A DNA stretch of 34,426 bases from Eubacteriales bacterium. GTDB taxonomy: Bacteria > Bacillota > Clostridia > Oscillospirales > UMGS1783. The notes beneath the pieces are model-generated. The model ran no database searches. It was not told the origin of the DNA and saw only the letters and a program-made list of their open reading frames with translations. Of this stretch, positions 20,792 through 31,765 are shown piece after piece. The first letter of the stretch is position 1. Each line of letters begins with the position of its first letter. The position numbers were made by a program, and so were the translations under genes. The DNA lies in NCBI GenBank assembly GCA_045591385.1, contig JAZNSU010000075.1:1-34426 (forward strand), written 5' to 3'.

Positions 20792-21394
20792 TTATAGTCC
20801 TAATGGCAATGTATAGCCGACCGCAATGCCGAGTACGGCCGAAATTCCAATGATGAGGATGGGATGCACCTTCTTAAAGGCCAGCACCGCCATGCCCGCA
20901 AAGATAACCAGCGACACGTAAAAGGGAATCCCCGAGAAAACGCTAAAATTCAGCCCATTCGGGAAGAACACCGTCTGTCCGATCGACAATACTGCCGCCG
21001 CAATCAAGCCGATTACGGCCGGTTTTAGCCCCGACATGGCGCCCTTGACGATGCGGTTGGATTTGAACTTTTCGTAGCACTTGGCCACAATCAGAATGAT
21101 GATAAAAGAGGGAAGCCCCACACCAAGGGTGGCACAACAGCCCCCAAGTAAACCGCCCCACATCCCAAGGCCGCCCGCCGTCTGCCCCATCTCGGTGCCC
21201 ACGTAGGTGGCAATATTCACGGCAAACGGGCCGGGGGTACTCTCGGCAATGGCGATAAAATTGACCAGCGCCTCACCGGTCAGCCAACCGTGGGAGATCA
21301 CCGCATCCTGAATCAGCGGGATCATGGCATAACCGCCGCCAAAGGTGAATAACCCAATCTGGAAAAAGGCCCAGAACAATTCTAAGAAAATCAT
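20792..21394 (-). CDS. chrA: chromate transporter family protein (short CHR, second half of pair)
   Basis: 200 aa. FTFGGGYAMIPL motif. 4-nt overlap with the upstream paralog. Confidence 0.8.
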   Translation of the reverse strand: MIFLELFWAFFQIGLFTFGGGYAMIPLIQDAVISHGWLTGEALVNFIAIAESTPGPFAVNIATYVGTEMGQTAGGLGMWGGLLGGCCATLGVGLPSFIIILIVAKCYEKFKSNRIVKGAMSGLKPAVIGLIAAAVLSIGQTVFFPNGLNFSVFSGIPFYVSLVIFAGMAVLAFKKVHPILIIGISAVLGIAVGYTLPLGL

Positions 21395-21945
21395 TTTCTC
21401 GTCCTCCTCTCCAACAGGAGTGAGGACACAATGCCGACGACAGCCGCCCCAATGATGATAAACAGCACATTGAGATCAAACAACGCCGAAATGAGGAAGG
21501 CGGCCGCCGCAATGGCGTAGGCTAATACCTGTTTGGGGCACTTCTTGGCCATTGTCCACAGCGACTTGAGAATCAGCGCCAGCACCCCCGCACGGATGCC
21601 GAAAAAGGCGTACCGCACCGCATCCACTTCTAAGAAGTTGCGTAGTACAAAGGCGATCAGGGTAATGATGAGGTAAGAGGGAAGCACAACGCCCAGCGTG
21701 GCACAGGCCGACCCCCAGAATCCCGCCACCCGACTGCCGATAAAGGTGGCTGAGTTAATCGCAATCGGACCGGGCGTGCTTTCGGCAATCGCCAATATTT
21801 CTAGGATATCATCCTCGGTCGCCCAACCGTGCTTCTCCACCACCTCACGCTGAATGAGCGGGATCATGGCATAGCCGCCCCCAAAGGTAAACAAGCCAAT
21901 CTTAAAAAAGGTGGAAAATAACGCCCACAATTTTTTCGCTTTCAT
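21391..21945 (-). CDS. chrA: chromate transporter family protein (short CHR, first half of pair)
   Basis: 184 aa. FTFGGGYAMIPLIQ motif. Paralog of the downstream gene. Confidence 0.8.
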   Translation of the reverse strand: MKAKKLWALFSTFFKIGLFTFGGGYAMIPLIQREVVEKHGWATEDDILEILAIAESTPGPIAINSATFIGSRVAGFWGSACATLGVVLPSYLIITLIAFVLRNFLEVDAVRYAFFGIRAGVLALILKSLWTMAKKCPKQVLAYAIAAAAFLISALFDLNVLFIIIGAAVVGIVSSLLLERRTRK

Positions 21946-29496: not shown

Positions 29497-29718
29497 TTAT
29501 TCGATCTCGATCATCTGGGCATCTTCCTTGCGAATGGACAGTTCATAGCCACGCACCGTCAGTTCCATCGGGTCGCCTAAGGGAGCTACCTTGCGAAGAT
29601 AGATCTCAATGCCTTTGGTGATGCCCATGTCCATGATCCGCCGCCGTACGGCGCCTTCCCCATGAACCTTGACCACCTTGGCCGTCTTGCCGATCTTTAG
29701 GTCTTTTAATGTATTCAT
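29497..29718 (-). CDS. feoA: FeoA-family protein
   Basis: 73 aa. SH3-like FeoA pattern RRRIMDMGITKG...V. Confidence 0.88.
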   Translation of the reverse strand: MNTLKDLKIGKTAKVVKVHGEGAVRRRIMDMGITKGIEIYLRKVAPLGDPMELTVRGYELSIRKEDAQMIEIE

Positions 29719-29735
29719 ACTGTACCTCTCCTTTA

Positions 29736-29751
29736 GTTAGCATATGCTAAC
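29736..29751. promoter_or_regulatory. perfect 16-bp palindrome GTTAGCATATGCTAAC (candidate operator) just downstream of the feoA -10
   Basis: Perfect dyad. Lies 10 nt downstream of the TATAAT box and 4 nt upstream of the feoA RBS. Confidence 0.6.
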
Positions 29752-29761
29752 CACAACCCAT

Positions 29762-29790
29762 ATTATAATCATACAGGGAAAGTTTGTCAA
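29762..29790 (-). promoter_or_regulatory. consensus sigma-70 promoter of feoAB
   Basis: On the minus strand: TTGACA (29790-29785), 17-nt spacer, TATAAT (29767-29762). Confidence 0.75.
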
Positions 29791-29826
29791 TACTTTTTTT
29801 GTCGATTTTTGAAAAAAGTTTGACCC

Positions 29827-29855
29827 TTGCCAAAAGAGGGAATTCGTGGTATGCT
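29827..29855 (+). promoter_or_regulatory. candidate promoter of the DtxR-family regulator gene
   Basis: TTGCCA, 17-nt spacer, TATGCT, with a TG at the extended -10 position. Confidence 0.45.
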
Positions 29856-29877
29856 ATAGGAAAAGGAGGCGATACCG

Positions 29878-30240
29878 GTGAAAATTCAAGAGTCGGGCGA
29901 GATGTATCTGGAAACGATCTTACGCCTGTCCCAACAAGGGAAAAAGGTACGATCCATTGATATCGCCGAGGATATGGGCTATTCCAAGCCGAGCGTGAGC
30001 CGTGCGGTCGGGTTGCTCAAAGCGGGGCAGTTTATCGAGGTGAATAAGGACGGCTTTATTGCCTTGACCGAAAGCGGTCGCGAACGGGCGCAAAAGATTT
30101 TTGAGCGACATCAACTGCTTACCGCCTGCCTAATGAAATTGGGCGTGAGTGAAAGGGTGGCCGCCGAGGATGCCTGCAAGATCGAGCATGATATCTCGGA
30201 TGAATCCTTTGAGGCCATCAAAAAATTTATGGAACCCTAA
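29878..30240 (+). CDS. DtxR/MntR-family metal-dependent transcriptional regulator (two-domain, no SH3)
   Basis: 120 aa with GTG start, AGGAGG upstream. HTH is SIDIAEDMGYSKPSVSRAV. Metal-ligand motif is CKIEH. The last 18 codons are part of a duplication. Confidence 0.85.
   Translation: MKIQESGEMYLETILRLSQQGKKVRSIDIAEDMGYSKPSVSRAVGLLKAGQFIEVNKDGFIALTESGRERAQKIFERHQLLTACLMKLGVSERVAAEDACKIEHDISDESFEAIKKFMEP
30185..30233 (+). repeat. 49-bp direct repeat, left copy (inside regulator ORF)
   Basis: AGCATGATATCTCGGATGAATCCTTTGAGGCCATCAAAAAATTTATGGA is identical to 30702-30750. Confidence 0.97.
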
Positions 30241-30245
30241 AAATG

Positions 30246-30266
30246 CCTCCCTTGTGTAAAGGGAGG
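30246..30266. repeat. left hairpin / terminal inverted repeat of the cassette
   Basis: CCTCCCTT-GTGTA-AAGGGAGG. The core 30247-30265 matches the reverse complement of 30668-30686 at 18 of 19 positions. Confidence 0.8.
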
Positions 30267-30295
30267 GGGACCGCGAAAGCGGTGGAGGGATTGTG

Positions 30296-30664
30296 ATGCA
30301 ATCCAAGCACAACAAAAATCTTGTGCCGTTTGCAAAAGAATTGCGGAAAAATATGACCAAGGAAGAACGGTACTTATGGTACGATTTTCTGAGGGATTAT
30401 CCCATTCGCTTTTCGCGACAAAAGGTATTAGGAAAATATATTGTAGATTTCTATAGCGCTCAGGCAAAAATCGTTGTTGAGTTAGATGGTTCGCAACATT
30501 ATACGAGCGCAGGGGAAATGCGGGATTTTCACCGCAGCGAATTTTTATATGGCTATGGATTGCGTGTTTTGCATTTTTCCAACAAGGAAGTAAATGAGAA
30601 CTTTGCAGGGGTGTGTCATTGCATTGATGCTGAGGTGCGGCAATCCCTCAGTCAGCTGCGCTGA
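30296..30664 (+). CDS. DUF559 / Vsr-like endonuclease-domain protein
   Basis: 122 aa from ATG 30296, with GGAGG 7 nt upstream. LRKNMTKEERYLWYDFLR...FSRQKVLGKYIVDFY...VVELDGSQH is typical of the DUF559 family as I recall it. Confidence 0.8.
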   Translation: MQSKHNKNLVPFAKELRKNMTKEERYLWYDFLRDYPIRFSRQKVLGKYIVDFYSAQAKIVVELDGSQHYTSAGEMRDFHRSEFLYGYGLRVLHFSNKEVNENFAGVCHCIDAEVRQSLSQLR

Positions 30665-30666
30665 CA

Positions 30667-30687
30667 GCTCCCTTTGCACAAGGGAGC
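30667..30687. repeat. right hairpin / terminal inverted repeat of the cassette
   Basis: GCTCCCTT-TGCAC-AAGGGAGC. Starts 3 nt after the DUF559 stop. Confidence 0.8.
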
Positions 30688-30701
30688 CGGTATGGATGGT
30701 A

Positions 30702-30757
30702 AGCATGATATCTCGGATGAATCCTTTGAGGCCATCAAAAAATTTATGGAGCAATAA
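30702..30757 (+). pseudogene. orphaned ancestral 3' end of the regulator gene (49-bp right repeat copy plus its own stop)
   Basis: Reads ..KHDISDESFEAIKKFMEQ*. It is directly followed by the terminator at 30761-30786. Confidence 0.7.
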
Positions 30758-30760
30758 GAA

Positions 30761-30786
30761 AAGCACCCATCTGGGTGCTTTTTCTT
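30761..30786. terminator. bidirectional rho-independent terminator (regulator / argF)
   Basis: AAGCACCC-ATCT-GGGTGCTT then TTTCTT, with an A-run on the left. Overlaps the argF stop. Confidence 0.85.
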
Positions 30787-31765
30787 ATAGGGTTGCCGCC
30801 ATGACGGCTTTAATGGTATGCATACGGTTTTCGGCCTCGTCAAAAACGATCGACTGCGGGCCTTCGAATACCTCATCGGTGACTTCCATGCAATCCAGCC
30901 CAAAACGGCCGCAGATCTCGGCACCCAGACCCGTTTTCAAATCATGGAAAGCGGGCAGGCAATGCATAAAGCGGCATTGGGGACCGGCGATATCCATCAG
31001 TTCCTGTGTCACGCGGTAGGGGGAGAGAGCGCGGATGCGGTCTTCCCACACCTCGACCGGCTCACCCATCGACACCCACACGTCGGTATAGATAATATCG
31101 GCGCCGACCACAGCGGTGGCAGGGTCTTCACTCAGTTCAATGGTCGCTCCCGTTTCGGCGGCAATGGCACGGGCTGTTTCGACCAGCGCATCGTCGGGGA
31201 AATAGCGGCGAGGGGCGCACGCTACGAAGTGCATCCCCATTTTGGCGCAGCCAATCATGAGGGAGTTGCCCATATTGTAGTGGGCTTCGCCGGTGTATAC
31301 CAGCTTTCTGCCCTTGAGAGAACCGAAATGTTCTTTAATGGTGAGGAAATCGGCCAAGATCTGGGTGGGATGAAATTCATTAGTCAGCCCGTTCCATACG
31401 GGAACGCCGGCATATTTGGCCAGTTCTTCCACCAAGTTCTGACCGTAGCCGCGGTACTCGATGCCGTTAAACATCCGTCCCAGTACCCGTGCGGTATCGG
31501 GGATGCTTTCCTTTTTACCCATCTGAGAACCCGACGGGTCGAGATAGACGGGGTGCATACCCAAATCGGCCGCCGCCACCTCAAAGGCGCAACGGGTGCG
31601 GGTACTCGTCTTTTCGAAAAGCAGGGCAATGCTCTTACCTTCGTGATCCCGATGGGGGATCCCTGCCTTCTTTTTGGCTTTATAGTCAGCGGCTAGGTCG
31701 AGTAAATATTCAATTTCTTCGGGAGTAAAATCCAGCAATTTGAGAAAATGTCTGCCTTTTAACAT
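30785..31765 (-). CDS. argF: ornithine carbamoyltransferase
   Basis: 326 aa. STRTR, HPTQ and HCLP motifs. Confidence 0.95.

Follow-up and report, generated by a model that had tools for sequence, protein, structure and literature searches.

We analysed a 34,426-nt stretch of DNA from a Eubacteriales bacterium (assembly GCA_045591385.1, contig JAZNSU010000075.1, forward strand), called the window below, which carries a one-gene cassette encoding a DUF559 nuclease behind a gene for a DtxR/MntR-family metal-dependent regulator. The cassette (about 445 bp) is lodged between the stop codon of the regulator gene and the terminator of that gene. The divergent FeoA/FeoB genes lie upstream of the regulator, and argF is its convergent neighbour (Table 1). 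We found that the last part of the regulator gene is present twice, once on each side of the cassette, as direct repeats identical at 49/49 bp. The next 7 nt differ at three positions, ACCCTAA behind the proximal copy and GCAATAA behind the distal one, so that both copies reach an in-frame stop, as ..FMEP* and ..FMEQ* respectively. A strong hairpin with a T-run stands only behind the distal copy and abuts argF, and the data support the view of the distal repeat as the original end of the gene, followed by its terminator. When upstream and downstream flanks were compared by local alignment, the repeat scored 49, whereas the 99th percentile of a null built from 400 mismatched flank pairs of unrelated loci was 13.5 and its maximum 24.5. 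No transfer RNA or non-coding RNA that could have served as a target was found adjoining the cassette, and exact-protein look-ups of the window regulator and of the DUF559 protein (three start variants) gave no match.

Table 1. Features of the regulator-argF region in the window
Feature	Position	Strand	Basis
DtxR/MntR-family metal-dependent regulator gene, 120 aa, ends ..FMEP*	29878..30240	+	Pfam Fe_dep_repress, Fe_dep_repr_C; NCBIfam MntR-like
Proximal 49-bp repeat copy, the functional regulator 3' end	30185..30233	+	sequence identity
Left junction ACCCTAAAAAT: last codon (Pro), stop, A-run into cassette	30234..30244	+	aligns with natural end of empty allele, GCAATAAGAAAAGC
5' conserved inverted end: outer hairpin 30246-30266, second hairpin 30270-30283, GGAGGG Shine-Dalgarno 30284-30289 within GAGGGATTG box	30245..30293	+	near-invariant in 50 family loci
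DUF559 (PD-(D/E)xK, Vsr-related) nuclease gene, 122 aa	30296..30664	+	PF04480, 3HRL
3' conserved inverted end: CAATCCCTC box 30641-30649, hairpin 30651-30665 (holds TGA stop), outer hairpin 30667-30687	30641..30688	+	box and outer hairpin 99-100% conserved, 51 loci
Right junction GGTATGGATGGTA, possibly degenerate start of distal regulator copy	30689..30701	+	common to L089; L092 as GGTATAGATGGCG
Distal 49-bp repeat copy, orphaned original gene end	30702..30750	+	sequence identity
Original last codon and stop (GCAATAA), then bidirectional intrinsic terminator 30759-30782 in common with argF	30751..30782	+	matches empty alleles L002, L004
argF (ornithine carbamoyltransferase), convergent neighbour	30785..31765	-	Pfam OTCace_N, OTCace; synteny kept in all related loci

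The assignment of the cassette gene was clear. The protein matched PF04480 with an expectation value (E) of 1.2e-28 and 99.5 bits against a gathering cut-off of 20.6, over 104 of the 109 profile positions, and a profile search matched the structure 3HRL in the PDB (E 2.8e-14). E62, D64 and H68, which form the ExDG..H core, are invariant in 22/22 sequences. An alternative GTG start lies at 30293. Besides DUF559, Pfam gave only a weak match to MTES_1575 REase, and PADLOC gave weak partial matches only, to DpdF and mREase. The match to 3R3P, from the Vsr-like EDxHD family, was weak (E 0.084), as was a PHROGs match to HNH/homing endonucleases (E 0.0017). An AlphaFold model reached a pLDDT of 68, and 3HRL was its only meaningful Foldseek match (probability 0.98, TM score 0.58); the model added nothing to what the sequence had indicated. 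No transposase or integrase domain was detected in the cassette, and DUF559 is the only open reading frame (ORF) of at least 40 aa between the repeats with a protein-family match. The gene has a G+C content of 38-40%, compared with 50-58% in its flanks, and its ratio of nonsynonymous to synonymous divergence (dN/dS, 0.04-0.13) indicates purifying selection. Few annotations as 'endonuclease domain-containing protein' are commoner in bacterial genomes than DUF559, to which, as far as we know, no biology has been assigned.

Since no promoter-like site was detected in the window between the regulator promoter and the DUF559 ORF, and no T-run follows the 5' hairpin on this strand, transcription of the cassette probably relies on read-through from the regulator gene. 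In the window (30662-30757), in locus L092 (594-688) and in L094 (732-818), the TGA of DUF559 and the distal regulator fragment share a reading frame, with different indels at the junction. This could be chance (about 1 in 9) or a hint of read-through.

The cassette is bounded by structured inverted ends. The arms of its two outer hairpins (30247-30265 and 30668-30686) are 19 nt long and 95% complementary, and only these two copies occur in the window, with none expected by chance. We found that the hairpins are only the outer parts of larger conserved ends of about 48 nt, each made of an outer hairpin, an inner hairpin and a box (GAGGGATTG at the 5' end, CAATCCCTC at the 3' end), and that the two ends are imperfect reverse complements of each other. 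Comparison of the window with L092, L094 and a further locus, L216, places the borders of the cassette at about 30245 and 30688. Across the family the 5' flank reads AAAGCCTCCCTTGTGTAAAGGGAGG-(second hairpin)-GGAGGGATTGTnATG and the 3' flank CAATCCCTCA-(hairpin with the stop codon)-AGCTCCCTTTACACAAGGGAGCC; the last eight codons of the gene, with the invariant C-terminus QSLSQLR*, overlap the 3' end.

Identity over 51 loci is 97-100% in the outer hairpins and the 3' box, compared with 71% for the nucleotides of the ORF and 51% for third codon positions. Compensatory changes were seen at five pairs of the inner 5' hairpin (8-26 of 50 sequences) and at two pairs of the inner 3' hairpin. The RNA fold z-score of the 5' end was -4.0. 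When the two ends of the window cassette were folded together they formed a four-way junction at -67.9 kcal/mol, compared with a total of -44.5 for the separate hairpins. Covariation between the 5' and 3' boxes offered too few variants to judge panhandle pairing, and L021 breaks the pair; the counts of G·U (about 7) and C·A (about 5) are too close to tell which strand folds. Rfam 15 contained no relevant match at E up to 5 in 29700-30900, and no match at the gathering score in the window and 17 loci.

These results bore out most of what a preliminary description of the locus had reported: the perfect 49-bp repeats with their in-frame ends and three mismatches in the next 7 nt, the strong terminator behind the distal copy alone, a single 122-aa DUF559 gene, now verified with a profile hidden Markov model, and inverted hairpins around it with neither transposase nor integrase. 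It had also proposed that this is a compact one-gene mobile cassette and had set out what an allele with an empty site would look like. We found empty sites in close relatives, as set out below, and the same hairpin ends on hundreds of homologous cassettes in other genomic contexts.

A protein search returned thousands of homologues of about 122 aa with 65-75% identity, mostly from metagenome bins of Clostridia/Oscillospiraceae. Nearly all of the 80 genomic loci that we retrieved carry the same 5' and 3' ends, and 78 distinct neighbour-gene contexts were counted among 81 loci. The upstream gene is co-oriented with the cassette in 40/51 loci, and in 11/51 the cassette starts within 20 nt of the upstream stop codon. 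At L077 and L079 an upstream ORF of at least 100 aa ends at a TAA in the outer-hairpin loop, 14 nt inside the 5' end, which suggests that a host gene may take its stop codon from the cassette. Bins labelled Anaerolineaceae (Chloroflexota) account for five loci (L021, L031, L033, L038 and L045), with the same ends, about 68% protein identity and, in four of the five, the same upstream gene; they reflect either cross-phylum transfer or mis-binning. We found no description of DUF559 as a mobile unit in the accessible literature. In one survey, DUF559 proteins are among the gene families enriched at predicted invertible loci (PMC9881135), which fits the flanking inverted repeats described here. 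Collectively, these data indicated a large, apparently undescribed family of one-gene DUF559 cassettes in gut Clostridia that is mobile over evolutionary time.

Genomes can carry more than one copy: L015 holds two DUF559 genes (2-352 and 2501-2872) 2 kb apart, with 52% and 70% identity to the window protein, and L023 and L032 come from one metagenome-assembled genome. Some subfamilies have extra conserved flanks with promoter-like and terminator sequences of their own. A partly palindromic element, AAATTCCAATTTGTCGA, forms the left border of such an extended flank, 90-140 nt from the ATG, in about 18 loci (L005, L007, L013, L014, L019, L025, L039, L053, L055, L072 and others). It is present on the upstream side only and was rejected as a target-site duplication; a role as promoter or operator in some cassette subfamilies is more likely. 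A phage origin was likewise rejected, the phage collections yielding three weak matches in INPHARED and one distant match in IMG/VR. A metagenome scan with a clade-specific ORF pattern gave 0 matches, though L092 and L094 contain the pattern, and the collection evidently holds none of those short contigs.

The ends also occur without the gene. Such ORF-less doublets consist of a 5' end, about 25 nt and a 3' end, and are found beside some genes and in tandem arrays. A scan of gut metagenomes detected them in at least 120 stretches, 80 of which were retrieved. Among these 80, complete doublets of 115-135 nt were present in 70, in about 22 contexts. No DUF559 ORF was found near them in the 483 kb of retrieved stretches. 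None of the 70 complete doublets has a flanking duplication, and the AAAG/CTTT at their borders belongs to the inverted repeat. As single-stranded DNA a doublet folds into the same four-way junction (z = -10). At L048 (2180-2450 and 2900-3010) and L042 (2870-3240) a DUF559 gene has tandem arrays beside it, made up of two or three doublets or of repeated 5' ends, which suggests local amplification.

We then asked how common the flanking repeat is, by comparing the 300 nt upstream with the 300 nt downstream of each cassette at 59 loci. Repeats above the null were found in the window (49 nt), at L046 (60 nt, with one mismatch), at L080 (30 nt) and at L011 (17 nt), with a borderline 15 nt at L060. 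About 55 of the 59 family loci had no significant flanking repeat, and no regular target-site duplication was seen across the 59 cassettes. A close comparison is L216, whose DUF559 protein is 84% identical to that of the window and has the same type of inner hairpin. It lies at a different site, behind the stop codon of an ABC-ATPase gene and ahead of the terminator of that gene, without a long repeat. A long flanking repeat is thus not supported as the normal insertion signature of the family. Where long repeats do occur they are host sequence. The L046 repeat (2362-2421 and 2916-2975) corresponds to the last 11 or so codons and the stop of the upstream ORF, the L080 repeat (about 694-723 and 1208-1237) to the leader of the downstream gene, and at L011 the copies lie at about 2406-2422 and 2925-2941.

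Next, we compared alleles of the regulator-argF site itself. In the close relatives L002/L003, L004, L085-88 and L091 the site is empty, and the regulator gene runs straight into the terminator and argF. It is occupied, with a second regulator end, in L092/L093 (93% protein identity) and L094 (82%), which gives the same arrangement in three species-level lineages. Between the window and L092, nucleotide identity is 91.8% for the DUF559 gene and 92.0% for argF, with synonymous divergence (dS) of 0.315 and 0.42; dN/dS of the DUF559 gene is 0.13 in this comparison and 0.04 between the window and L094. As the DUF559 gene is as diverged as argF and its dN/dS is low, the arrangement is old and the protein under selection. 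The argF genes of the empty L085 and the occupied L092 are 98.2% identical, which indicates that presence and absence of the cassette segregate within about one species. There are also decayed copies, in L089, L001 and L090, in which the 5' end and most of the ORF are gone and the 3' end and the distal copy remain. In the same three loci ..FMEP* is found as a regulator allele without an adjoining DUF559 gene.

The alleles of the two copies form mosaics. In L089 the gene end has native alleles (gaacacgacatttcag), and the distal copy opens with the window type (agcatgatatctcgg) and closes with the native one. The window-type alleles in a lineage whose own gene differs indicate that the distal copy travels with the cassette. 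In L092 the distal copy is an L001-type allele together with its 215-nt downstream segment, and in L094 both copies carry the lineage's own FAAIKKF allele. The mosaics in L089 and L092 point to exchange by homologous recombination. With dS of about 0.3-0.4 and a neutral copy facing a coding one, at least about 8 differences would be expected in the 49 bp, whereas the window shows none. Homogenisation would therefore be required, for which gene conversion or repeated exchange through the repeats may be responsible.

Two observations on this junction stand beside these. The segment of about 215 nt, rich in hairpins and with a terminator of its own, is an alternative regulator-argF intergenic allele (L089:499-715, L001:3364-3585, L090:768-985, L092:689-905). 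In L092 it lies behind the distal ..FMEP* copy in place of the usual terminator, and in L089, L001 and L090 it directly follows the regulator, fused to the last 30 or so nt of DUF559. Regulator C-termini vary sharply after ..FME (P0241-P0265), with FME*, FMEQ*, FMEP*, FMES/T/N/A*, FMESKKR* and FMENHSK*, a pattern that fits repeated recombination or insertion-loss events at the junction of stop codon and terminator.

Three claims of the preliminary description are not supported by these comparisons. It had spoken of a fresh insertion, which does not agree with the same arrangement in three lineages, with a DUF559 dS of 0.32 against 0.42 for argF or with the low dN/dS. It had taken the 49-56-bp duplication as the signature of insertion, a view that the roughly 55 of 59 family loci and L216 without a long repeat do not bear out. 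A position at the 3' end of a gene is borne out, in that family cassettes often lie at or inside the extreme 3' end of a co-oriented gene. The attached proposal that the cassette supplies a replacement end is not supported, given that the cassette proper contributes at most the last codon and stop and that ..FMEP* also stands alone.

The repeat seems to be larger than its perfect core. The proximal copy continues in altered form through the stop codon to an A-run and GC, where it meets the extended end of the cassette, AAAGCCTCCC, with which this A-run and GC share microhomology. The same bases, AAAAGC, open the terminator stem in the empty alleles. On the right there is microhomology at 7/10 positions between the cassette end, CAAGGGAGCC, and the regulator, CGAGGATGCC. 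Regulator homology extends further to the left of the distal copy in L092, as AGAT(GG)CGAGCATGAT, and in L094, as ATATTGAGCA with an 11-nt deletion; by alignment this leftward extension is weak (p 0.26, 0.79 and 0.03). The duplication was probably about 65-75 bp long, degenerate on both sides, with the 49 bp as its homogenised core.

The explanation that we favour, with moderate confidence, is that the locus holds an old block, made of a member of the cassette family and a duplication of the regulator end with a single origin, in which the nuclease possibly acts on the ends of its own cassette. The duplication would have arisen once at this locus, likely by microhomology-mediated illegitimate recombination or by template switching at the hairpin ends. 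The block of proximal end, cassette and distal copy would then have been inherited vertically in several species-level lineages and passed between lineages by ordinary homologous recombination, with gene conversion, or repeated exchange with empty alleles, holding its two copies identical. Precise loss would come about through recombination between the repeats and regenerate an intact ..FMEQ* gene with its terminator. For the movement of the family as a whole we can only speculate that the DUF559 nuclease recognises and cuts the four-way junction formed by both ends, in single-stranded or extruded DNA, and that the ORF-less doublets are its non-autonomous partners, much as RAYT proteins act on REP/REPIN hairpins (see below).

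The perfect repeats could instead mark a recent insertion into the gene end by a dedicated mechanism, the 49-56-bp repeat being an attachment-site (att)-like signature, for instance of Campbell-type integration of a circle that carried a copy of the gene end. Such a cycle accounts for the mosaic alleles as well as ordinary homologous recombination does: L089 has the predicted mosaic, native in the proximal copy on the left and, in the distal copy, foreign on the left and native on the right. The cassette is always accompanied by the junction pieces ACCCTAAAAAT and GGTATGGATGGTA, the alleles of both copies are specific to the lineage in the window as in L094, long host-derived repeats are seen at L046, L080 and L011 as well, and recombination between the repeats would yield a circle and a clean empty site. 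We consider this explanation unlikely, however, given a cassette without an integrase or other recombinase, the many family loci and L216 that have no long repeat, doublets that have no flanking duplication, and ..FMEP* as a free-standing regulator allele; the dS values of two carrier lineages make the arrangement too old for a recent event. A free-standing homing endonuclease, which would cut the empty regulator-terminator site and have the cassette copied by double-strand-break repair with co-conversion of the flanks, the duplication being a passenger, agrees with the chimeric flanks, which resemble co-conversion tracts, with alleles in all stages of the homing cycle, functional, decayed and empty, that coexist in about one species, and with an ORF under purifying selection. 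DUF559 is related to Vsr, and the Vsr-like EDxHD family includes a proven homing enzyme, I-Bth0305I (PMC3239194), although the 3R3P match is weak (E 0.08), as are the PHROGs matches to HNH/homing endonucleases. A homing enzyme has one cognate target, whereas these cassettes occupy 78 contexts, and the same clade sits at two unrelated sites, in the window and at L216. Homing also leaves the ultra-conserved inverted ends and the ORF-less doublets unexplained, there is no intron or intein context, and the family is almost absent from phage collections. Moreover, the distal copy and terminator reproduce the complete empty-site sequence within the occupied allele, which would thus not be immune to cleavage. 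We hold homing to be more improbable still than a dedicated insertion mechanism.

It is no easier to credit that the unit is not mobile at all, and that DUF559 serves the host, perhaps after long domestication, as a nuclease of repair or defence, its flanks acting as cis-regulatory RNA (a 5'/3' panhandle hiding the Shine-Dalgarno sequence, terminators, insulators), the variation being due to ordinary deletion and recombination. The strong purifying selection and divergence in step with the host would agree with this, as would the position of the Shine-Dalgarno sequence inside the 5' end, where it is able to pair with the 3' box, the terminator-like outer hairpins, the promoter and terminator that some subfamilies possess, and the apparently low copy number per genome. 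A resident gene is difficult to reconcile, however, with 78 contexts in 81 loci from two phyla, with presence/absence polymorphism at 98% argF identity, with a G+C content 10-15 points below that of the flanks, and with ORF-less doublets that conserve the structure far from any DUF559 gene and even form tandem arrays. Finally, related contigs often break exactly in the 3' end (L001, L090) and most homologues lie on short contigs, as might be expected if the 49-bp repeat and the cassette had been mis-joined by an assembler. That the locus is an artefact of this kind is nevertheless very improbable. The same layout of regulator end, cassette and second regulator end runs continuously from regulator to argF in the independent assemblies L089, L092, L093 and L094, from different samples and pipelines, and the window contig runs through the whole block into unique sequence at either side.

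Several points weigh against the old block with a single-origin duplication and a nuclease that acts on its own ends. The AlphaFold model of the protein is of low confidence, 3HRL is its sole structural match, and we know of no close DUF559 protein that has been biochemically characterised. The long repeats of host sequence at three or four unrelated loci (L046, L080, L011) suggest that a long, variable duplication may be a recurrent by-product of insertion and not a one-off event. In L094 the DUF559 gene is more diverged than argF (76% compared with 87% nucleotide identity, with dS saturated), so that it could stem from a separate acquisition at this site, and a site-specific mechanism would then be favoured. 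Purifying selection and co-divergence with the host would fit a domesticated host gene too. That gene conversion kept the repeats alike is something we infer from their identity, and the start of the distal copy right at the cassette end depends on the weak alignments given above (p 0.26, 0.79, 0.03). Unlike classical REPIN populations, the doublets appear low in copy number: the 34-kb window has none and each retrieved locus a single one.

If the favoured explanation is taken one step further, DUF559 proteins of this type could be the dedicated nucleases of an unrecognised class of bacterial mobile elements, which cut the four-way junction formed by the pair of ends to excise or copy the element, with the doublets as non-autonomous forms. 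Such a class would be a functional analogue of REPIN-RAYT on another protein fold, widespread in gut Clostridia and able to cross phyla. We offer this as a tentative possibility, about which we have more doubt than conviction. Within such a class, insertion between stop codon and terminator would let the cassette ride on host transcripts, and the occasional long host duplications might be by-products of insertion based on nicks or template switches. The cassettes have hallmarks of a mobile unit, with ends better conserved than the gene, dozens of contexts, miniature copies, and gain, loss and decay at one site. Should the nuclease act on its own ends, DUF559 would gain a function and the HUH-based REP/RAYT systems a PD-(D/E)xK counterpart; the ends provide a compact substrate for testing. 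Mobile DUF559 cassettes would also explain many assembly breaks in gut Firmicute data. Odd peptide tails of the 'PLSQLRCQLPL...' type appear in gut Firmicute annotations, and these possibly derive from cassette ends. The locus further teaches that a perfect flanking repeat does not prove recent insertion.

One more repeat was seen elsewhere in the window. At 20792-21945 on the minus strand, two adjacent ORFs of 200 and 184 aa contain a 71-nt stretch that is 85% identical (21299-21369 and 21841-21911); they look like tandem paralogues unrelated to the DUF559 cassette.

Among known systems, one parallel is with integrative elements whose insertion restores the 3' end of the gene that they enter, as is familiar from Campbell integration at att sites of the transfer RNA and transfer-messenger RNA type. 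Here too the repeats are the 3' end of the target, the proximal copy is functional and the distal one is the displaced original, and recombination between the repeats restores the empty site. Unlike such elements, the cassette has no integrase, its repeat is not family-wide, and the block is only about 0.5 kb and old. The att-like 3'-end repeats at both borders are found at this locus in three lineages and are absent from most family members. The Vsr-like (EDxHD) homing endonucleases, such as I-Bth0305I (PMC3239194, PMC2677866), have in common with it a related nuclease fold, a cycle of functional, decayed and empty alleles, and chimeric flanks of the co-conversion kind. The cassettes differ from them in lacking an intron or intein, in occupying many contexts, in their conserved inverted ends and doublets, and in retaining the empty site, and the similarity itself is marginal (E 0.08). 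Orphan DUF559 proteins such as Escherichia coli YcjD (PRK09767) and Neisseria gonorrhoeae NGO0050 (PDB 3HRL) belong to the same Pfam family and have the same core motif, but these proteins have no described function or mobile context. With 60 bits against the YcjD equivalog cut-off of 218, the cassette protein is not a YcjD orthologue.

Long and variable direct repeats are a feature of IS1634 of Mycoplasma mycoides. The cassette resembles miniature inverted-repeat transposable elements (MITEs) and small insertion sequences in its terminal inverted repeats, its autonomous and miniature forms, and the occasional variable flanking repeats of 17-60+ nt at four loci. It differs from them in having no DDE or other known transposase and no regular target duplication, and in ends that are structured two-hairpin modules. 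The cassette is also like the systems of repetitive extragenic palindromes (REP), their paired form REPIN and the associated transposases RAYT (PMC3116915, PMC3337134, PMC5581495). In both, a single nuclease-type gene lies between inverted hairpin repeats and is under purifying selection, partly with vertical inheritance; ORF-less inverted doublets form a long structured hairpin and lie extragenically near gene ends; and there is no target-site duplication. The enzymes are different, however, the cassette encoding a Vsr-related PD-(D/E)xK protein of the DUF559 family, whereas RAYT is an HUH Y1 transposase of the IS200/IS605-like kind. A cassette end consists of a two-hairpin module and a 9-nt box, and together the two ends fold into a four-way junction. 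The repeats seem to be low in copy, with only the two gene-linked ends in the window, whereas REPIN number tens to hundreds per genome. In addition, the DUF559 gene itself occupies many contexts across two phyla, and the hosts are Clostridia and not Proteobacteria. Together, these comparisons suggest a cassette family that is REPIN/RAYT-like or MITE-like in its organisation and is served by a different nuclease.

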